Shown one piece after another: positions 2,195-12,204 of a DNA stretch of 64,000 nt. Below the pieces are notes generated by a model. That model had not been told where the DNA came from. It saw only the letters and a list, made by a program, of their open reading frames with translations, and ran no database searches. The position numbers and the translations under genes are program-made. Source of the stretch: Kiritimatiellia bacterium (lineage in GTDB: Bacteria > Verrucomicrobiota > Kiritimatiellia > RFP12 > UBA1067); NCBI GenBank assembly GCA_017454745.1, contig JAFTCL010000007.1, forward strand, positions 9,034-73,033. Reading direction: 5' to 3'. The stretch's first letter is position 1. Each line of letters opens with the position of its first letter.

Positions 2195-3985
2195 CTACTT
2201 CTGCACCTTTATGGAGTAGAATCCCGATTTGCCGCCCTTGACCGTAATGTTCGGCGTCCACTTTGCCCCATCGCCCACCTTACTGTCGCCATTCGCCATG
2301 TCTTGGAGAGTTGCCCCTTCGATGAGGATGTATGTAAGTCCCCGCCGTGTCGGGGGTGTCGTGATAGACGGATTTTCTGGCGTAAGTTCTATCACCGCGC
2401 CCTTTTCCGTATCCATCGCCTCCCTGACAAACGCTTCCTTTACCGTCGCCGCGGTAAGATTGATTGCGCCTGAAGCGTCGGCAGCGGGAATATTTAGATA
2501 CGGCGTGATGTCATATCCATGGGCGACGACCTTTACCGCCGCCCCGTTCGCGGTTACGCGCTCAACATCCGGGGCAACCTCCACGGTCACCTTCTCGTGC
2601 GCAATGCCGGCGGGGATTATGACTACCACATTCTTGTTGCCATAGCTTGGCCTTACGACGAAACCGTCATCTTTATTGCCCGCCAGCTCAAACACGGCAT
2701 CGTCTTCAACGTACGGCGCATCGGCGACTCCGGCGACTTGCCACTCCACATCATCCAGCCATACGCAATCCAAGCCATCGGCATCGCTGACATCCTTTAT
2801 ATAAGTCCATCGTAGCGTATGCCGTCCATCACCGGTTATGTCGCACGAAACCTTTCCCCACCCATGCATGCCGTCCTGCCACGCCATGCAGACGCCATCG
2901 ACCGAAAACTCCACCCTGTCCCACGGCATCCCCTCATCATCCGTTTCCTCGCACGAGGTCATCCACCAGAAAGACACCGCGCCGCTGCCGTCGACCGTGG
3001 TCTCCAGCCAACTCTCCTGTTCATCGGAGATTCTCCCACTCCTCAACGACTCCCCGCCGCCACGGCCGTTAGACACGTCCCGAGTCCAGCCGGCATCGCC
3101 GGCCGTTGTGAAAGCGAGATCCGGCGCGTTCACGCCGTCTCCCAACGCCCATTCACGGGTTAACGTCGTCTCCACGGTCTCGGACGGCTTGCAGTTTGTC
3201 TTGAATGCCCTCGCTCGGATCGTCACCGTTTCGCCCGCCGCGAGGTTGATATCGAACGGCCCGGCGTAAACTGGGCTGTCTTCCGTCGGCTCGTCCCCGA
3301 GGAGCGAATAGCGGATAACTGCATCCTCAGTATCGCACGAAAGCGTCACCTGCCGCGTCTGGTTGCCAGTGAAAGTCAGATCGCCCTCGACGGCGATCTC
3401 CGGCACCGCCACCACGCCGAACCAATATTGCCCCTGTGTAGTCAGCGCCAGCTCTCCGTCCAGAAACGCCCCCACTGTCACCGTCATCGCGCTTTTCACG
3501 GTAAACGCCTTGAAGACGGGACTATCCGATGTCGGAGTCGTCCCATCGGTAGTGTACCGCAGCTCCGCCCCCTCCACCGAGCAAGAGGCGGAGAGTTTCA
3601 CAGACTTCGCAAGAATGTTCTCGCCAGGCAACGAAAGAGTCAGCCCGCATGATACATAGGCTTTGTAAACTTCAGCCTGGGCCGCGCCGTTGATATAGGT
3701 AGTGTAGGTGAGTTCGTGGCGGCCAAGGCCAGAAAGCCCATGCGCGAATTCTCCGCTGCCGGTCACGCGTCTCACCTCGTTGCCGTTGTCCGCAATCACC
3801 ACCGTCGCATCTGCGTCGCCGCCGATCCATGACGCGTCCCACGGCAAAGCAACTGTGCACAGTACAGGCTCCACCCCCGTGCGCGAATCAACCTTGACCG
3901 GCGCGCTCTCGCACGAGCAAATGACCCGCCCAAGCGATGTCATAGCCATCGCAACTGCAAGAGCGGCTATTATCGTCTTTCGCAT
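2195..3985 (-). CDS. Secreted hypothetical protein with repeated chitobiase/beta-hexosaminidase C-terminal-like (Fn3/Ig-like) domains
   Basis: Signal peptide MRKTIIAALAVAMAMTSLG. Repeated modules such as LRYTTDGTTPTSDSPVFKAF and IRYSLLGDEPTEDSPVYAGPF. No catalytic motif recognised. Confidence 0.5.
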   Translation of the reverse strand: MRKTIIAALAVAMAMTSLGRVICSCESAPVKVDSRTGVEPVLCTVALPWDASWIGGDADATVVIADNGNEVRRVTGSGEFAHGLSGLGRHELTYTTYINGAAQAEVYKAYVSCGLTLSLPGENILAKSVKLSASCSVEGAELRYTTDGTTPTSDSPVFKAFTVKSAMTVTVGAFLDGELALTTQGQYWFGVVAVPEIAVEGDLTFTGNQTRQVTLSCDTEDAVIRYSLLGDEPTEDSPVYAGPFDINLAAGETVTIRARAFKTNCKPSETVETTLTREWALGDGVNAPDLAFTTAGDAGWTRDVSNGRGGGESLRSGRISDEQESWLETTVDGSGAVSFWWMTSCEETDDEGMPWDRVEFSVDGVCMAWQDGMHGWGKVSCDITGDGRHTLRWTYIKDVSDADGLDCVWLDDVEWQVAGVADAPYVEDDAVFELAGNKDDGFVVRPSYGNKNVVVIIPAGIAHEKVTVEVAPDVERVTANGAAVKVVAHGYDITPYLNIPAADASGAINLTAATVKEAFVREAMDTEKGAVIELTPENPSITTPPTRRGLTYILIEGATLQDMANGDSKVGDGAKWTPNITVKGGKSGFYSIKVQK

Positions 3986-3989
3986 AATG

Positions 3990-5291
3990 CTATTCCTCCT
4001 GTTGAAAGTGTTCCGGCGCGGCGGTTGCTTGCGCTACTGGCCGGCCGGGATTGTGCATGTTCGTCTCCGTTTCACGGAGCACTGGCGTACCGAAATGGAA
4101 CCCTGTCTGTTCTGACACGGTGCTGACAAGGCGGAAGCCGTCGTTGTTGTTCTCGTTCGACGGGTTATTGTTGTTCCGGTTGGACGAGTTGCAGTTGTCC
4201 GCATTGTTGTTCCAGCTGCCGCCGCGTTTCACCCGGTTCGACCCGGAGGAAGAACCTTCTTTCGACGCCAAATCCTTCAGAATCCCCTTGAAGCCAAACC
4301 AGCGCGACGCACCATCGCTCGACGCTACGCACTGTGCAAAACGCTTTTCATTCAGCATCCCATTTTCAAACTGCCGCACGCGTTGGGCATACGTTCGCCT
4401 TGTTCGTATGAATCGTACCCGCTTAAGCCGCCAGCAGTTCGGCCAAATGCGCAGTCCAAGAAACGGCACACCATCCGACACTGGAGCAACGACTGTCGCG
4501 CCATCCTTGACTTCAAGACCTCTTTCCTCTTCAAGCCACCGTTTCGCCTCGTCATGCAAATGCCACGCCATCGCCTTGGAATCCGCAAAGAACACAAAGT
4601 CATCCATGTAACGAACATAAGGTACTGACGAAGGCGCGGTAAAACCGCGCCTTGCAACTATCGCTCCCATCCCGCAAATCGCAAGATGGTCGAAAGCGTC
4701 AAGGTACGCATTCGCAAACCATTGACTAGTAAGGTTGCCTATCGGCAGCCCGCGCCCTGTCGACAACCCAGGCACGGGGTGCCGCACGATCAGCTCAATC
4801 AAGTTCTTCACGCTTGTCTCGCGGAATTTCGGCAACAACACACCCAGCAACCATTCATGGCCAATGCTGTCGAAATACTTGCGGATGTCCATCTTGCAAA
4901 AGTATTTGGCCTGGCCTGCATACCGCCGCACCAACGCGCATGCCGCATGTGCGCCATATCCTTTACGGCAGGCGAAACTGACGGGAACGAAACTGCGTTC
5001 GATCAACGGTGCAATCACGCCGCAAAGCGCATGATGCACGACCCTGTCGGCCACCGGGGCGCAACTGATCGTTCTTGGTTTGGGATCGAATATCCTGAAC
5101 TGACGATAATCCGACGGCCGATATCTGCCGTTTATCAATTTGTCGCGCAAACAAGCAAGATTAACATCAAGGCAGGCTTCAAATTCTTGTACTGCGACAG
5201 ACGGCGCATGGCCTCGTCTCACGCGTCGCCAAGCCTTGCGAAGATTCTCTTCAGAGACAATCTTCACCCAAATGCCGCCGTAAGATCTCAC
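3990..5291 (-). CDS. DGR-type reverse transcriptase (RT domain about 4260-5291; the uninterrupted ORF continues in frame through the template repeat)
   Basis: RT motifs PRTISCAPVADRVVHHAL, KMDIRKYFDSI and YVRYMDDFVFFA (YxDD box). The start overlaps the upstream HRDC gene by 4 nt. Residues about 346-391 of the ORF are the TR translated in the VR frame (GSSSGSNRVKRGGSWNNNADNCNSSNRNNNNPSNENNNDGFRLV). Confidence 0.85.
   Translation of the reverse strand: MRSYGGIWVKIVSEENLRKAWRRVRRGHAPSVAVQEFEACLDVNLACLRDKLINGRYRPSDYRQFRIFDPKPRTISCAPVADRVVHHALCGVIAPLIERSFVPVSFACRKGYGAHAACALVRRYAGQAKYFCKMDIRKYFDSIGHEWLLGVLLPKFRETSVKNLIELIVRHPVPGLSTGRGLPIGNLTSQWFANAYLDAFDHLAICGMGAIVARRGFTAPSSVPYVRYMDDFVFFADSKAMAWHLHDEAKRWLEEERGLEVKDGATVVAPVSDGVPFLGLRIWPNCWRLKRVRFIRTRRTYAQRVRQFENGMLNEKRFAQCVASSDGASRWFGFKGILKDLASKEGSSSGSNRVKRGGSWNNNADNCNSSNRNNNNPSNENNNDGFRLVSTVSEQTGFHFGTPVLRETETNMHNPGRPVAQATAAPEHFQQEE
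4113..4256 (-). repeat. DGR template repeat (TR), including the IMH*-like 3' end
   Basis: About 134 bp of near-identity to the 3' end of the target gene (5941-6074). Homology is weaker over the terminal about 10 nt (4113-4122 vs 5931-5940). All but one TR/VR difference fall at coding-strand adenines of the TR. The TR is rich in AAC/AAT codons (15 Asn). Confidence 0.85.
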
Positions 5292-5848
5292 GCGATCACC
5301 TCCCCATCGTTTGAAGCGGCTGGACTGCAGTTTTCCGGAGGCTGCGGCCTATCACCTTTGGAAAGCGGCGCATCCGCCGCTTTCATACCTGCGCCGCCCA
5401 TCAGCTCCAACACGCTCTTCCCATACTTAACGCAAAAACCTTCTCCTAAACCTTCAACCTCCTTTATGCCTGACAGCGACTTGGGCATAGCTTTCACTAG
5501 TTCCGCCAATTGAGTGTTTCTCGCTATCGCATACGCCGGCCGGCCTTCGGCTTTCGCCGTTTCGTTTCTCCATGTCTTCAACGCGCGGTAGCAAGTTTTT
5601 TGTGCATCCGTAAGACCATCCTCGGGATTCGGTGCTGTCGCATCTCGTGGACGGTACGAACCCGCGTTCTCGTATTCTGGAGAATCTCCAAGCGACAAAA
5701 CGAGCGACAAATGGGGAACATTGCCATGCACAAAGAAATGTTCAGAGACATTCAACACCTCACGCCCGAATGTGGCAATACGTAGTGCTTCTTCAGGGAA
5801 ACCCTGAAGCGCCTCGTTGTATCGCAATGTGACAACCCGTATCTGCAT
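5288..5848 (-). CDS. DGR accessory protein with C-terminal HRDC-like domain (used in place of Avd)
   Basis: C-terminal segment GRPAYAIARNTQLAELVKAMPKSLSGIKEVEGLGEGFCVKYGKSVLE resembles the HRDC fold. It lies between the target gene and the RT and overlaps the RT start. The N-terminal extent is uncertain. Confidence 0.6.
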   Translation of the reverse strand: MQIRVVTLRYNEALQGFPEEALRIATFGREVLNVSEHFFVHGNVPHLSLVLSLGDSPEYENAGSYRPRDATAPNPEDGLTDAQKTCYRALKTWRNETAKAEGRPAYAIARNTQLAELVKAMPKSLSGIKEVEGLGEGFCVKYGKSVLELMGGAGMKAADAPLSKGDRPQPPENCSPAASNDGEVIA

Positions 5849-5918
5849 GGTTTGTGCCTCGCTGGCTGGTCGGCCCGTGCGCTACCGCGCCGGTCCGCCC
5901 GCCCTTGCGCTCCGCGTA

Positions 5919-8900
5919 TTATTCATTATTTGACAGGGTTCTGACAAGGCGGAAGCCGTCGTTGTTGTACCCGTCCGACGGGTAGCCGCTGCTCCGGTTG
6001 GACGAGCCGCAGTTGTCCGCAATGCTGCGCCAGCTGCCGCCGCGTTCCACCCGGCCCGACCCGGAGGAAGAACCCTTTGGGTCTGTCACTCCGCTTGATA
6101 GACTGCCATACCAATCAAGGCACCATTCCCACACATTGCCACTCATGTCGTACAAGCCCCAAGCGTTAGGATTCTTTGTTCCAACGGGTTGCGTTCCACT
6201 GCTTGAATTACTACCATACCACGCATAGCCGCCGTCCATCGAATCCCCCCAGTAATATACTGTCGTTGCTCCCGCGCGGCAGGCAAATTCCCACTGAGCC
6301 TCGGTGGGAAGGTCGAAATCCAACCCCGTCCGGGCGCGCAGCTTGCCCATGAACGATGAAGAATCCACCGCTGATGATGACGGCCAATCCGAGCCTGCCG
6401 ATGAGCCTCGGATTGAATTGTAGCTAACTTTCTCCACGGGCCGAGTGTCTCCGGAGAAATAGGACGGATTCGATCCCGTCACCAACATATACTGTTTCTG
6501 CGTCACCTCGAACACGCCGCAATAGAACGGTTCCGTCAATGTCACGTCATACGATCCGCGCATCTTGAACGAACCCGGCCCGATGAGACGCAGCACCAGT
6601 TTTGTCGTCTTGTACTCGTCCGACCAACCGCCGGGCGGGATTTCCGCGAGATATGAGACCGGATACGACGATGCGCCGGATCCGGCCGAAAGGTCAATCA
6701 CGCAGTATTTTTCATAATGTTGATACCCAACCGAAAACACCACGGCATCCGAGTTGATTTCCAGTCCCTGCGCATTCAGATCCCAGACAACGTGATGCGA
6801 ACCTTCATCCGTTCCCGTGTCGCCGGAGAGCGCGGAAGCGGCAGCCGCGTATGTCGTGCCGTCCACGCGGTTCGACGCCGTTAACGAAAGGAAGGGCATC
6901 ACCCCTGACGGCAGTCCCGCTGTCACATCACCAACCACGGTGTAAGTGACATCAACCTTCCCGTTCCACGGATACCGCTGTTTAGCCGTGACGTTCCGAA
7001 TCATTACAGTATCCCACTTCGCGTACAGCGTCGCCACCGATGATGACACCGTGTTCGTGGCATACACACGCGTTGTCAGCGACGAATCGGAACACCACCC
7101 TGCGAACGTGAAGCCGCTCTTCACCGGCGTCGGCAGACTGCCGTACGTGCCGCCGACCGTGTACTGCTGCGAACTGCACGAGCTCCCGCCGTTAGAGCTG
7201 AACGAGACCGTAATGTATTCTATCCACCATGCATAAAGCGTTGTCCCACTTGTCTTGTCCCACATCCTTGCACTTGCGCCGGAACCCGTGTAGTACTGTG
7301 TTCCGTATCCATCCGTAGATGTGTAATAGCCCCCGAACGAGTAGCCAGTTCGAGTTGGCGGTGTTATGGACGGCATCGCGCTTCCGTATGTCGCCGTAAC
7401 GCTTGACGTGCCATCGCTTCCGCCATACCGGTCCAGCGCAACATTATAGGTGTTTGCCGTCCATTTCGCGTATAGCGTTGTCCCACATGTCTTGTCCCAC
7501 ATCCTTGCACTTGCGCCGGAACCCGTGTAGTACTGTGTTCCGTATCCATCCGTAGAAGTGTAATAGCCCCCGAACGAGTAGCCAGTTCGAGTTGGCGGTG
7601 TTATGGACGGCATCGCGCTTCCGCATACTGCATACACTGCCTCCGTGCCACCGCTTCCCGACTTCATATTTAACGTCACTTTTGGCGCCCAAGACACTTT
7701 ATCCAAGTAGGCAGACACCAAACCGCTCTGATACGATGAATCTGTGCTTTTACACTCCCATTTAATTTTATGAGTGCCCGCCGAAATCGAGAAAGTTCGC
7801 TGTTCAAAATCAGAAAACATACCGGTAGCATAATTCGGATCCAGAGGATTATCCCCGTCAACAGAAAATTCTAACGAGTCAAAATGTGATTTCCCCGATA
7901 TATACCACCAGAAAGAGAGCCTTCCCGGACCTGTAACTGTTGTCTCAATTTGTCCACACTTGCTAACGCTATACATAGAACAACAGGCAGCGTCCACACC
8001 ATCATAACTTTTAGCCGTTTGAGCGTACCACGGGAAATCCCCACTTGTCGAAAATTCAAGGAATTCATTGTCCAAAGCTTCGGAAAGTGCCAACTGTGGC
8101 ATCTGGGCTGCCTCTTGGGTAAATTTATGGGTTTGAACACTGTTTCCACATGTAAACGTGATTGTAACTTCACGTTCATAAGGTGTCGTATTTGCGGCAA
8201 CTTCATATGAGGCAGTAAAACTTCCTTTGAATGGCGTCACCGGCATTGTAGACCACGACCAAAACGAACCTCCCCAGCCAGACACAGTTTCCTCCTCTGT
8301 CCACGAGGAATCGCACGAGATCTTGATTGTTCCAGTTCCCCCTGAAGCCGGTATCGTTCTCGTTTGCGGCGACACGCTGATTCCTCCATTTCCGGACGAA
8401 GCGGTGATCGTCACAGACTTCGTTATCGACTTGCCACCGTATTCGGCTTTGATTGTCACACTCTGCAACGACGACACACTATTAGCCGTCAGTTTGCCAG
8501 ACGAATTAATGGAAGCATAAGAACTTCCAGAAGTTATCGACCACGAGGGCGAAACCGATTTCGTCGATCCATCGCTCATGGTAGCAGTACATGTGTATGC
8601 GGCGTTGCCGCCGGACGATACGCTGGATGCCCCGGAAATGGCGATGGAAGAAACGGTCAAAGAGGAGGAGGAACCCGCAGCCTGCTTGATGGTGAGGTAA
8701 TCGCCAAAAGTGTTCAGTTTGGCGCGCCACGACCTTTCCGCCCCGGTGTTTTCAAAACAATTCGCGGTGATTACTATCGGCTGGAATCCGTTCCCGCGGT
8801 CAAACAAATAGGCGGAATTGTATTCCGATTCCCCATAAAGCACGGCATTGATATCGTACAGCGCAATACCGTATTTATATTCGTATGCCGTTGTCCCGGC

Positions 8901-9458
8901 GTATGCGCCGGTATCTATCGGTCCCATGGTTTGCCACCCCGCTATCCACACGTGCAAAATCCATGACGCCACTTGATAGGAAAAAGTGCTTCCCCACGCC
9001 CCCGATGTCATTTCGTAAGGGGCGTGAAAAGTCAATGTGGCATTCGAGCCTTGAGCGTCAATTTCAAGCACATACTCCCGCGGGGCGACCGCGGTCTCCG
9101 CATGTGCGGCGATCGGCATCGCCGCGGCAATTACCATTGAAAACAAGGATGCAAAGGCGCATACCGAGTGGATGATGAGCTTTGCGCCCACACCGGCAAA
9201 TGCCTTTGCGCCACGACGCCAATCGCCGCGCACGGTTTTCCCCGATGGGTCTTCACCGCAATCAGCCATAGTTCCAGACGGTAAAAAAGCAGCCTCCTCC
9301 GCAATCGCGATATTACTGCGTCCTTCTGTCATGTGCTTTATGAATTGTCCATTCATTAGATTTCCCTTCCTTAACCAAATTCCAAGACCAGGCATGAGCA
9401 GATTTGCCAGCATGTCCGTGCCGCTATCCGCTTGCCGCAACTTCAGAAAAGCCTTCAA
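5919..9458 (-). CDS. DGR target protein: large secreted multi-domain protein with Big_2, tandem Listeria-Bacteroides (Flg_new) repeats and a C-terminal FGE-sulfatase/C-type-lectin-fold domain carrying the VR
   Basis: C-terminal ...FACRAGATTVYYWGDSMDGGYAWYGSNS...GNVWEWCLDWYGS...GSSSGSGRVERGGSWRSIADNCGSSNRSSGYPSDGYNNDGFRLV is a formylglycine-generating-enzyme-like lectin fold. A signal-peptide-like stretch (AKLIIHSVCAFASLFSMVIAAAMPIAAHA) sits about 65-95 aa into the ORF, so the true start may be internal (for example near 9269). Confidence 0.8.
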   Translation of the reverse strand: MKAFLKLRQADSGTDMLANLLMPGLGIWLRKGNLMNGQFIKHMTEGRSNIAIAEEAAFLPSGTMADCGEDPSGKTVRGDWRRGAKAFAGVGAKLIIHSVCAFASLFSMVIAAAMPIAAHAETAVAPREYVLEIDAQGSNATLTFHAPYEMTSGAWGSTFSYQVASWILHVWIAGWQTMGPIDTGAYAGTTAYEYKYGIALYDINAVLYGESEYNSAYLFDRGNGFQPIVITANCFENTGAERSWRAKLNTFGDYLTIKQAAGSSSSLTVSSIAISGASSVSSGGNAAYTCTATMSDGSTKSVSPSWSITSGSSYASINSSGKLTANSVSSLQSVTIKAEYGGKSITKSVTITASSGNGGISVSPQTRTIPASGGTGTIKISCDSSWTEEETVSGWGGSFWSWSTMPVTPFKGSFTASYEVAANTTPYEREVTITFTCGNSVQTHKFTQEAAQMPQLALSEALDNEFLEFSTSGDFPWYAQTAKSYDGVDAACCSMYSVSKCGQIETTVTGPGRLSFWWYISGKSHFDSLEFSVDGDNPLDPNYATGMFSDFEQRTFSISAGTHKIKWECKSTDSSYQSGLVSAYLDKVSWAPKVTLNMKSGSGGTEAVYAVCGSAMPSITPPTRTGYSFGGYYTSTDGYGTQYYTGSGASARMWDKTCGTTLYAKWTANTYNVALDRYGGSDGTSSVTATYGSAMPSITPPTRTGYSFGGYYTSTDGYGTQYYTGSGASARMWDKTSGTTLYAWWIEYITVSFSSNGGSSCSSQQYTVGGTYGSLPTPVKSGFTFAGWCSDSSLTTRVYATNTVSSSVATLYAKWDTVMIRNVTAKQRYPWNGKVDVTYTVVGDVTAGLPSGVMPFLSLTASNRVDGTTYAAAASALSGDTGTDEGSHHVVWDLNAQGLEINSDAVVFSVGYQHYEKYCVIDLSAGSGASSYPVSYLAEIPPGGWSDEYKTTKLVLRLIGPGSFKMRGSYDVTLTEPFYCGVFEVTQKQYMLVTGSNPSYFSGDTRPVEKVSYNSIRGSSAGSDWPSSSAVDSSSFMGKLRARTGLDFDLPTEAQWEFACRAGATTVYYWGDSMDGGYAWYGSNSSSGTQPVGTKNPNAWGLYDMSGNVWEWCLDWYGSLSSGVTDPKGSSSGSGRVERGGSWRSIADNCGSSNRSSGYPSDGYNNDGFRLVRTLSNNE
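5931..6074 (-). repeat. DGR variable repeat (VR) at the 3' end of the target gene, including the putative IMH end
   Basis: Pairs with TR 4113-4256. 11 of 15 TR Asn codons are altered in the VR (N to G/R/S/I/G/S/S/G/Y/D/Y), plus K to E and E to G, all by A-to-N changes. Confidence 0.85.
7244..7630. repeat. Intragenic tandem duplication (about 239-bp period, roughly 1.6 copies) encoding the Flg_new-type repeats of the DGR target
   Basis: Near-identical DNA at 7244-7390 and 7483-7630. These encode ...SAMPSITPPTRTGYSFGGYYTSTDGYGTQYYTGSGASARMWDKT.GTTLYA.W twice. Confidence 0.8.
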
Positions 9459-9916
9459 TCCAACTTAAACATCCGTTTCGACGGGTCGTCTGAAAGCTTC
9501 TCAATCAGCATATCCACCAATCTATCACCGGCTTCCGCATGAGCTACCGCCCCACTGTTGTTTCCTTTCACTTGACCTTTTGCGTCTATCAGACGATGGA
9601 GGACCGCCGACAGTCTTCTATCATAGGAATTCAGCAAAAATGACAATTCTCCCATCAGATTGCTTCTATATCTGTATGCCTCTATCAATTCCCAACATAC
9701 TCTGTAGTTTTTCCTGGCCGCACTATTGATACCCCATATAGTCATAAACGCCATGGCATAACACCCAAAGGTTATAAACAAACGAGTTGTTCCATCCGGC
9801 AGCTTAATGTCAAAATACCAGGCTTGTACAGCCGCTGCGACGCATATCAATATCAACAGCACATCCGTTGCAAGTTCAACAATCTTCCAAATCAACATGA
9901 TCGATGTACGCGGCAT
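9455..9916 (-). CDS. Hypothetical small membrane protein (two N-terminal TM helices)
   Basis: 153-aa ORF in markedly lower-GC DNA. Its stop overlaps the annotated start of the DGR target by 4 nt. No recognisable domain. Confidence 0.5.
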   Translation of the reverse strand: MPRTSIMLIWKIVELATDVLLILICVAAAVQAWYFDIKLPDGTTRLFITFGCYAMAFMTIWGINSAARKNYRVCWELIEAYRYRSNLMGELSFLLNSYDRRLSAVLHRLIDAKGQVKGNNSGAVAHAEAGDRLVDMLIEKLSDDPSKRMFKLD

Positions 9917-9935: not shown

Positions 9936-11183
9936 TTAAACCCCGCCATAGCATTCTTTCCAGAATTTGCAAACACCGCATTGGCAATGGCGCGATTTGA
10001 AATCAAACGCCTTATCCTTAATGTCCTGAAACATTAATTCATGGGAACGCAGCTCTATACCGGGGTGGGGACCATAATCGACATTGTCCATAATCCACGC
10101 GTTTTCCAGAATCATTACCACTTCACGCGTACGGACGTAGTGAAGACCGTACTCAATGCTGTAGCGGCAGTAAAAAACAAGAAGCGAAGCCGCAATCAAC
10201 ACGGAGAAAGCCAATACCGTTCCGCTAGATTCAGGATTCGCCGGACATCGGCCCCTGTTTTCAAGTATCTTGATTTGGCATTTCGCCGATACTAACACTT
10301 CTCCGGAATTCTCGCGCACCGGACTTTCGCGATTGTCCATTACGCTGTGAATGACAGGCTGTCCCTGCCGACAATCGCAGTTTGCGTTTCCACATATATT
10401 GAAGGCGGCAATTACAGCCGCTACAAAAAATGACAACAATAAAACCCTGAAGATAAATGTCAAGACATACCAAAGCGAACACAACATTCGGATATGGCAT
10501 TCGTTACGCACCATGTCAAGGATCAGATTGGTGTGCCCGGAACTTCTTAAACGTTGCTTGATAATGTTTATGTACGTCTTGCTGCAAACCCCCTTCTGGT
10601 ATTCTTTCTTGAAGTGCATGCCGCCGCTTCCTTCGCACCAAGGCACATAATCGGCCAGTTTTTGCAAACCTCGGCAACACAAATACTTTCTCATTGACGG
10701 GTAAGGGTAATCGATGCTTGTTCCCGCTTTTCGCAATATCCAATGTTCACGGTCCAGCCAAAAACGCAAACGCCCGAACAGTCCGGACGGGATTGCGCAG
10801 TTTTGGGTGAAAGAAACCGCAAGTCTGCCAACCTCGTCGGGCGAAGAACCGTTTTTGGTCAACAACCATTGATGGTGGGAGGAAATCGTATCCGGAGTCT
10901 TGGGAGACCGCCTATAGGCTATGGCCCCGGCCACATAAGACAAAGCAAGGAAAATAAACATGCCTCCAGCAGTGCTGCAAGTCAACCGCAACACTTCTTT
11001 AATCAAATCTTTATTCGGCATCGCATAGTAGCAAAGGCCAAAAGCGATTAAGAACAAACCGGCAACCGCGATTATGCCCGGAATCAACGTTCCGAAGAAT
11101 TCGATATAAAAATTCTGGACGAGAGACAGAGTCCCCCATATATTGTCAAACAAACTGCTTCTAGAATCTCTAGATTTGGACAT
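9936..11183 (-). CDS. Hypothetical Cys-rich polytopic membrane protein
   Basis: 415-aa ORF in lower-GC DNA with multiple hydrophobic segments and many Cys (CCRG, CDCRQG, HCQCGVCKFWKECYGG). No recognisable family. Confidence 0.5.
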   Translation of the reverse strand: MSKSRDSRSSLFDNIWGTLSLVQNFYIEFFGTLIPGIIAVAGLFLIAFGLCYYAMPNKDLIKEVLRLTCSTAGGMFIFLALSYVAGAIAYRRSPKTPDTISSHHQWLLTKNGSSPDEVGRLAVSFTQNCAIPSGLFGRLRFWLDREHWILRKAGTSIDYPYPSMRKYLCCRGLQKLADYVPWCEGSGGMHFKKEYQKGVCSKTYINIIKQRLRSSGHTNLILDMVRNECHIRMLCSLWYVLTFIFRVLLLSFFVAAVIAAFNICGNANCDCRQGQPVIHSVMDNRESPVRENSGEVLVSAKCQIKILENRGRCPANPESSGTVLAFSVLIAASLLVFYCRYSIEYGLHYVRTREVVMILENAWIMDNVDYGPHPGIELRSHELMFQDIKDKAFDFKSRHCQCGVCKFWKECYGGV

Positions 11184-11559: not shown

Positions 11560-11760
11560 TTTATCCGTGACGCGCCCTAACGCGGGTTCTAGCCCGCGCG
11601 GGAAATCTGTTTGTCACATTTCCCAAAACGGCCTTATCCGTCTAAGGAAAAGAACATATAAATGTTACCATATTTGCCATTTATTTGCAATATTGAAATA
11701 ACCGCCATCCGCGTTTTTGTGACGCGAATCAACCAAGGGGATTTGTTCGCGGCTGACGCC

Positions 11761-11802
11761 GTTAGGAGAGGTTGAAGCCCGACGGCAGGACGCGCGTCAT
11801 GC
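11761..11802 (+). repeat. 42-bp exact direct repeat, copy 2
   Basis: Identical to 2126-2167. It overlaps the stop codon (11797-11799) and last codons of the 11797-12204 gene. Confidence 0.9.
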
Positions 11803-12204
11803 GCGTTTAGAGGGATCCGGGCGGCGGGCGAGGAATCGGGCAATCATTTCAGCAAGCGCTAGGTATTGAAGACTGCCCAAGACTCCGAAGAACAGAATCG
11901 GGAAGAGAACCTCTCTCAACAAAAAGGAGCGTAACAGCATGATTGCCGGCAGTTGCAGGAGCGACGAGGGTAAATCCGCAATATCGAACCAGAGCCAGCC
12001 CAGCAATGCTTCACTGGGTCCGAGTTTAAGCATATCCGCCTCAATCGTCCAGGCGACAATCAGTACAGCGGCGAGATGGATGCCGCCAACTGCGATAGCC
12101 GTGCGGGAAAAACGGAACTTGTTACGAAGCAAAAGGCTTGCCGCAACAAACAATCCGGTCGCAATGATAGATGTTATAAGAACCAAAGCGGTACGCAGCG
12201 GCAT
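11797..12204 (-). CDS. Hypothetical membrane protein
   Basis: 135 aa with 3-4 predicted TM helices. No recognisable domain. Confidence 0.45.
   Translation of the reverse strand: MPLRTALVLITSIIATGLFVAASLLLRNKFRFSRTAIAVGGIHLAAVLIVAWTIEADMLKLGPSEALLGWLWFDIADLPSSLLQLPAIMLLRSFLLREVLFPILFFGVLGSLQYLALAEMIARFLARRPDPSKRA

Follow-up and report, generated by a model that had tools for sequence, protein, structure and literature searches.

A template repeat and a covarying RNA element lie inside the reverse transcriptase open reading frame of an HRDC-type diversity-generating retroelement from a Kiritimatiellia bacterium

The subject of this analysis is a diversity-generating retroelement (DGR) within a 64,000-nucleotide stretch of contig JAFTCL010000007.1 from a Kiritimatiellia bacterium (assembly GCA_017454745.1, positions 9,034 to 73,033 of the forward strand). 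The whole of this stretch is referred to as the window, and all coordinates are counted from its first letter. The element lies complete on the minus strand, where the target gene with the variable repeat (VR) is followed by an HRDC gene, the reverse transcriptase (RT) gene, the template repeat (TR) and an RNA element 3′ of the TR. Its neighbours are chromosomal genes (ABC transporter, GH95 glycosidase, and 2-oxoacid dehydrogenase E1 component, according to Pfam matches of the window proteins), so that the element, a DGR of the HRDC type, belongs to the bacterial chromosome and not to a phage. The open reading frame (ORF) of the RT crosses the TR in the reading frame of the VR and continues through the RNA element. 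The following features were delineated:

5919..9458, minus strand: DGR target gene, 1179 aa (ORF; Pfam FGE-sulfatase at 971-1173 with E 1e-33, three Flg_new matches, and a weak BACON match)
5931..6074, minus strand: VR, about the last 48 target codons, 86% identical to the TR
5864..5903, minus strand: GC-rich hairpin just 3′ of the target stop codon, from the DNA fold of 5945..5845
5288..5848, minus strand: HRDC-domain accessory gene, 186 aa (Pfam HRDC, E 5e-17)
4299..5291, minus strand: RT proper, aa 1-331 with fingers, palm and thumb (Pfam RVT_1 at 71-282)
4257..4298, minus strand: linker FGFKGILKDLASKE, 14 codons without a stop, between the last RT motif and the TR
4113..4256, minus strand: TR, codons 346-393 of the RT ORF, in the VR frame (repeat and frame analysis)
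4012..4121, minus strand: conserved structured RNA 3′ of the TR, as derived from a 27-locus alignment
3990..4112, minus strand: post-TR part of the RT ORF, 40 codons plus TAG (the RNA element read as codons)
2195..3985, minus strand: downstream gene, 596 aa, with CHB_HEX_C_1/Fn3_assoc domains (ORF and Pfam)

The RT ORF (5291..3990, minus strand) starts with GTG and encodes 433 aa, its first stop being the TAG at 3992-3990. The original prediction, made from the window alone, had stated that the frame starting at 5291 stays open through the entire TR, and this was borne out. Among solved structures, the best match of the RT was 8ub7_A (a 328-aa chain named 'Reverse transcriptase', query residues 10-331, E 7e-41), which we take to be the Bordetella phage RT bRT. 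Motif 4 is present as IGNLTSQ (aa 184-190) and is accompanied by YMDD (aa 228-231); a motif 4 of the form (I/V/L)GxxxSQ together with YxDD is given as defining for DGR RTs in PMC3521204.

TR (4256..4113) and VR (6074..5931) were aligned over 144 nt with 86% identity and constitute the sole long imperfect repeat of such kind in the 64-kb window, elsewhere in which the repeat search returned no further VRs. By local alignment the pair is widened to 4260..4111 and 6078..5929 (150 nt), with 18 of 23 mismatches on TR adenines; within the 144-nt core the proportion is 17 of 20, all at codon positions 1-2. The copy at 4256..4113 was assigned as the TR, and that in the target gene as the VR, because the mismatches fall on adenines of the former and because of its AAC codons, of which there are 13. 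The adenine-mutagenised part of the TR extends from about 4238 to 4151.

The first TR codon is codon 346 of the RT ORF (phase 0), and in the target ORF the VR has phase 0 as well. The C-terminal tail of the RT, GSSSGSNRVKRGGSWNNNADNCNSSNRNNNNPSNENNNDGFRLVSTVS, is therefore the TR read in exactly the VR frame, and is rich in Asn, as had been claimed; its predicted tryptic peptides are GGSWNNNADNCNSSNR, NNNNPSNENNNDGFR, and LVSTVSEQTGFHFGTPVLR. The ORF runs on because the TR starts 14 codons past the last RT motif with no stop between, and it stays open across the TR and the RNA element as far as the TAG because the TR is free of stops in the VR frame. This freedom is given by construction, since the TR duplicates coding sequence and is composed of AAC codons. 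The two other frames are closed by stops in the linker or in the TR. Taken alone, the configuration in the window is not beyond chance expectation: the chance of a common frame is 1/3, and the 40 post-TR codons were open in 27% of composition-matched shuffles. The part that exceeds chance is the recurrence of in-frame read-through in relatives.

Relatives were first sought at the protein level with the entire ORF as query; about 6,000 proteins had E ≤ 1e-20, and 120 homologues were evaluated. These homologues showed 52-78% identity and were mostly 420-430 aa long, and 119 of the 120 carried the same Asn-rich tail. As evidence of tail conservation this search was set aside as biased, since the tail in the query adds score and shared words. 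The sole homologue in it with the TR in the Gln-rich frame (P0056) resumes the common frame after the TR (…GNEHA..RPVATANAA), and two compensating frameshifts must consequently flank the TR there. The whole-ORF search was replaced by searches with the RT core only (residues 1-335) and by scoring at the DNA level. In the exhaustive RT-core search, evaluated on 50%-identity cluster representatives, most relatives were about 335-345 aa long and ended just past the thumb. Where the ORF is longer, it crosses the TR, and each of the three frames occurs (9 Asn-rich, 11 Thr-rich, 4 Gln-rich). The Asn frame is found in 7 of the 13 closest representatives and the Thr frame in 3; the other 3 stop early.

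The DNA survey comprised 160 loci, 80 from genomes and 80 from metagenomes (the metagenome query being the RT core only). At each locus the RT frame was determined by tblastn and the TR was located by its lectin-tip peptide in any of the three frames. The lectin-tip peptide took the place of a frame assignment from the longest ORF across the VR, which failed where contigs were truncated (L001, L003, L005, and L014). In nearly all surveyed loci the TR follows immediately 3′ of the RT core, about 30-60 nt past the last RT motif, and the loci form one large family with the order target-HRDC-RT-TR. The loci with a TR were distributed as follows:

RT in frame with the TR, read-through of the whole TR: 50 loci, plus 6 running off the contig
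RT in frame with the TR, stop before the TR: 28 loci
RT frame +1 relative to the TR, stop before the TR: 20 loci
RT frame +2 relative to the TR, stop before the TR: 18 loci
RT out of frame with the TR, no stop before the TR: 18 loci

A neighbour-joining tree of the RT cores was constructed, in which the clade containing the window comprises 59 loci (43 after dereplication). In-frame read-through was seen in 29 of the 43 dereplicated lineages of this clade, with 3 more running off the contig, versus 5 of 64 dereplicated lineages outside it. Outside the clade, 48 of the 64 lineages stop before the TR, with TR frames of 20/15/13, that is, with no frame preference. In-frame read-through is thus the predominant, inherited state of the window clade. 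The nearest relatives, L081 (79% identity) and L082 (73%), have the same 30-nt in-frame linker without a stop; counted from RT residue 335, the linkers of relatives span 24 to 174 nt.

Homologues whose RT clearly ends ahead of the TR had been named beforehand as a refuting observation, and many such homologues exist, including members of the window clade. Eleven of the 43 clade lineages carry a stop or a frameshift before or inside the TR. In L007/L088 and L092/L093 the stop is the very last linker codon, in L020/L102, L023, and L104-L106 it lies 23-35 nt before the TR, L025/L026 are frameshifted with a stop 25 nt into the TR, and L012, L027, and L114 are frameshifted. Since several of these exceptions were found in two separately listed contigs (L007/L088, L092/L093, L025/L026, and L020/L102), sequencing error is an unlikely cause. 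The exceptions had a median of 17 TR/VR mismatches, 93% of them at TR adenines, and the in-frame loci a median of 20, 89% of them at adenines. Adenine-specific differences are thus equally evident in the exceptions, from which it follows that the tail is dispensable.

One pair of near-identical loci among the exceptions differs in the copy 3′ of the RT, which is NRNNNNPSNRNNNLGFRLAST in L093 (1817-1954) and NRDYDYPSSRNFNLGFRLART in L092 (1987-2124). The 'TR' position of L092 looks diversified in the manner of a VR, and L130 is similar; the 'TR' of L092 could be an assembly chimera of TR and VR, or a mutated TR.

The sequence following the TR was aligned for 27 loci, from the TR 3′ end onwards. 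The resulting consensus structure of 19 pairs has 93% of its cells paired, and compensatory changes are seen at 10 of the 19; these values were reached in 0 of 500 column shuffles, and slid partners pair at 26-44%. In window coordinates the element contains a duplex of the TR 3′ end, ACCGUG (4121-4116), with CAGGGU (4105-4100), and a hairpin of 4081-4076 with 4068-4062, the loops being about 4-6 nt. The hairpin stem covaries (CUCCG/CGGAG, CCCCG/CGGGG, CUUCG/CGAAG, UCCCG/CGGGA), and a near-invariant ACGAACAUGC is found at 4064-4055. A long-range GC stem (4050-4042 with 4020-4012) encloses a variable insertion in some relatives. The element is kept where the RT stops before the TR (L020, L023, L104, L007, and L093). 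No Rfam match was obtained around the locus at E ≤ 1, and none in the whole window at gathering thresholds. The single-sequence fold of the post-TR RNA was unremarkable (z = -1.6), the support for the structure coming from the comparative analysis alone.

At the protein level the same stretch is variable. Among in-frame relatives the stop lies 7 to 775 nt past the TR end, a 1-nt indel 3′ of the TR separates the window from L081 and L082, and the conserved post-TR nucleotides are read as ...ETNMHNPGRPVAQATAAP in the window and as ...GDEHA..RPASSA..RRAG elsewhere. By the alignment, the post-TR stretch is conserved as a structured RNA and not as protein. By analogy with the spacer RNA of the Bordetella phage DGR, it most likely positions and primes the copying of the TR.

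The protein encoded by the RT ORF was examined with Pfam and AlphaFold2. Pfam returned RVT_1 alone (71-282), and no lectin or FGE-sulfatase domain was found by Pfam in the RT ORF of the window. In the AlphaFold2 model (88-sequence alignment), residues 1-328 reached a predicted local distance difference test (pLDDT) score of about 90, and residues 329-433 a score of 29-44; the latter segment is thus predicted to be disordered. A tail of about 90 aa, Asn-rich at first and then arbitrary in sequence, is probably translated.

The explanation that we favour, and consider probably correct, is that of a chromosomal HRDC-type DGR in which the tail is a dispensable, disordered by-product of a cis-acting RNA packed into the coding 3′ end and inherited within the clade. 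At 4113-4260 it is the RNA that functions, and not a protein. One operon transcript would carry the HRDC gene, the RT gene, the TR, and the RNA element; from the TR and its 3′ element, serving as template and primer, the RT together with HRDC protein would make adenine-mutagenic cDNA, and this would in turn replace the VR. The RT ORF would be extended for want of a stop in the 14-codon linker, one that the lineage either lost or never possessed. The sequence after the TR would merely happen to be open, and the tail would probably be made, disordered, and tolerated. Of the two possibilities offered by the original prediction, a TR that lies 3′ of the RT and is accidentally open comes closest to the evidence: position and openness stand, and the word 'accidentally' is too weak for what is seen in the clade.

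Several observations weigh against a pure by-product, and most of them speak at the same time for selection of the read-through. The proportion of in-frame clade lineages (29-32 of 43, versus 5 of 64 outside) is well above 1/3. Clade linkers of 24 to 174 nt stay in frame. By parsimony, the clade's changes in linker length comprise 15 that preserve the frame (multiples of three) and 9 that break it (binomial test against 1/3, p = 0.003), versus 16 and 27 outside the clade, as chance predicts; this contrast between clade and outside is weak (Fisher p = 0.07), and both the neighbour-joining tree and the parsimony counts are rough. The VR frame is used by 7 of the 10 read-through ORFs among the 13 closest 50%-identity representatives, and in the window it alone is open across the TR. 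The excess of preserved frames hints at some selection for an open frame, which the pure by-product model does not predict, and a function of the tail as a disordered peptide remains compatible with the low pLDDT.

On such a reading the read-through would be selected in the clade, either because the ribosome must cross the TR and the 3′ RNA element or because the Asn-rich tail acts as such. Possible purposes are a cis-preference that holds the nascent RT beside its own RNA, masking or unfolding of the template during RT synthesis, or the shielding of a C-rich stretch from premature termination or decay. We regard this as unlikely, though it is the strongest of the rival explanations. The 11 clade lineages with a stop or frameshift bear equal signs of adenine mutagenesis, and several of them recur in two contigs; the family at large works with a stop ahead of the TR; and the position of the post-TR stop is not conserved, in a tail that is predicted to be disordered. 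The bolder form of the idea, that a clade of HRDC-type DGRs in the PVC group deliberately translates its RT through its own template and that evolution has kept the linker in frame to let ribosomes cross the TR and the 3′ priming RNA, is more doubtful still. If it were true, RT synthesis would be coupled to template use, by cis-loading of the nascent RT onto its own coding RNA or by a translation-gated RNA fold, and the Asn-rich tail would be the visible trace of a translation-coupled retroelement mechanism.

An extension that serves translational coupling, by which the RT ORF would bring ribosomes to the downstream gene for a secreted protein, is improbable. In its favour, the TAG of the RT (3992-3990) lies inside the Shine-Dalgarno region, 4 nt before the ATG at 3985, and in L081 the ATG of the next gene is found shortly past the RNA element. 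In many in-frame relatives, however, the RT ends far short of the next start: its stop is at +7 nt in L009 and L112, at +34/37 nt in L085 and L003, and at +103 nt in L010 and L013, the last two stopping inside the RNA element. Relatives that stop before the TR retain the same downstream gene. As a general explanation, translational coupling was rejected because the stop position varies.

The second possibility in the original prediction, an RT that carries a genuine invariant copy of the lectin tip, amounts to a true fusion with a functional C-terminal lectin module of the FGE-sulfatase fold. Precomputed Pfam FGE-sulfatase matches are found on many homologous RTs (P0040 and others), one of which was named 'SUMF1/EgtB/PvdO family nonheme iron enzyme' by NCBI. 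The matching segment, however, is only the approximately 48 aa encoded by the TR, which correspond to the last part of a profile of about 255 positions; the window ORF has no such match, and the segment is predicted to be disordered. The tail sequence is, moreover, fully explained as TR with adenine-specific differences to the VR. A functional lectin domain on the RT was accordingly rejected and is very improbable, the FGE-sulfatase match on the clade RTs being an annotation artefact that arises from the translated TR alone. Least credible of all is a sequencing or assembly error near 4260 that removed an RT stop or shifted the frame, for which no support was found: 2 contigs carry the identical 433-aa protein under the name 'RNA-dependent DNA polymerase [Kiritimatiellae bacterium]', the linker is stop-free in L081 and L082 as well, and dozens of remoter relatives also lack a stop.

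Among the neighbouring genes, the HRDC gene is joined directly to the RT gene, its TGA stop overlapping the GTG start of the RT as GTGA. In each of the 54 clade loci whose flank was long enough, an HRDC homologue was present upstream of the RT. Between target and RT no avd gene was seen, although no search was aimed at Avd. The target gene product has the appearance of a surface protein and combines a BACON-like region and Listeria-Bacteroides repeats with a C-terminal domain of the FGE-sulfatase/C-type-lectin fold, at the very end of which the VR is located (last 48 codons or so). Within the target gene there is an internal, tandem-like duplication of 176 nt (7214-7389 and 7451-7626, 93% identical, 237 nt apart), which corresponds to the repeated Listeria-Bacteroides (Flg_new) domains. 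The DNA fold of 5945..5845 gave -23.1 kcal/mol (z = -2.9 versus shuffles), and by analogy with PMC3240598 the hairpin at 5864..5903 is a candidate target-recognition hairpin. Non-adenine differences between VR and TR (C/A, G/C, G/A) are clustered at the 3′ end of the repeat, the place where an IMH/IMH* difference would be sought, in this single-locus view.

The downstream gene (2195..3985) has a signal-peptide or lipoprotein-like N-terminus, begins with its ATG 4 nt past the RT stop codon, and contains no VR. A gene of the signal-peptide type also follows the RNA element in many relatives (for example L081, L083, L002, L010, L009, L020, and L023), and may represent a passenger or partner conserved within this DGR family. 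Immediately upstream of the target gene, two minus-strand ORFs, 11183..9936 (415 aa) and 9916..9455 (153 aa), contain hydrophobic, membrane-like stretches and gave no Pfam match; the end of the 153-aa ORF overlaps the start of the target gene. A 52-nt direct repeat (2119-2170 and 11754-11805, 94% identical) flanks a 9.6-kb segment that holds these two ORFs, the whole DGR, and the downstream secreted-protein gene, and that lies between the ABC-transporter operon and the GH95 glycosidase gene. The repeats could mark the boundaries of an island or integration event, or be copies of a terminator-like element. A search detected neither tRNA nor tmRNA, so that they are not tRNA-derived att sites.

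The locus can be placed among known systems as follows. That the TR usually lies upstream of the RT, as the original prediction held, is broadly right: the arrangement 1VR-TR-RT accounts for 56.6% of DGRs in PMC3521204, and PMC5758913 describes the TR as 'most often upstream'. A TR downstream of the RT is represented there by DiGReF group 2 (PMC3521204) and by architectures A2 and B2, and a TR that overlaps the RT ORF by DiGReF group 3 (Schillinger et al. 2012, PMC3521204). The present locus belongs to the latter group, its TR (4256..4113) lying within the RT ORF (5291..3990); in the consulted passages of that source, by contrast, reading frame, clade-level conservation, and an RNA element are not discussed for groups 2 and 3. 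HRDC-type DGRs correspond to Architecture C, with a Treponema DGR as the example and a share of 4% in the 2018 catalogue (Wu et al. 2018, PMC5758913); the present locus resembles it in that the HRDC gene adjoins the RT, a likeness that rests on the presence of HRDC. That paper also reports unexplained C-terminal extensions of up to about 150 aa for about 20% of DGR RTs. The consulted passages of PMC3521204 and PMC5758913 do not attribute such extensions to TR read-through, nor does the latter, in those passages, discuss the reading frame; the present analysis, by contrast, traces the extension of this RT to an ORF that reads on across the TR and the RNA element. The layout class is thus known, and what is added is an explanation of the extension, an annotation pitfall, and a conserved RNA element of HRDC-type DGRs. 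In this family, at least some of the unexplained C-terminal extensions are the ORF crossing the TR and the RNA element, and the RTs of the clade gain FGE-sulfatase matches only since their 3′ end is the TR. If the weak signal of frame conservation is true, it would suggest that translation is coupled to template use in a domesticated retroelement.

The closest mechanistic comparison is with the DGR of Bordetella phage BPP-1 (mtd-avd-TR-brt). There, as here, the transfer from TR to VR is specific for adenines and is directed into the tip of a C-type-lectin fold, and a structured RNA that includes a duplex with the TR 3′ end lies directly 3′ of the TR. In the Bordetella phage DGR the TR 3′ end and the spacer form a template-primer duplex, and stem-loops just past the TR bind proteins (bioRxiv 10.1101/2023.10.23.563531). 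The two systems differ in that the TR is upstream of the RT in BPP-1 and downstream here, in that the accessory protein is Avd there and HRDC here, and in that the annotated RT ORF contains the TR and the RNA element here. The covarying element 3′ of the TR, which has no Rfam family and is defined here for apparently Avd-less, HRDC-type DGRs, offers a way to ask if cis-priming, as worked out in the Bordetella phage DGR, operates in this architecture too.

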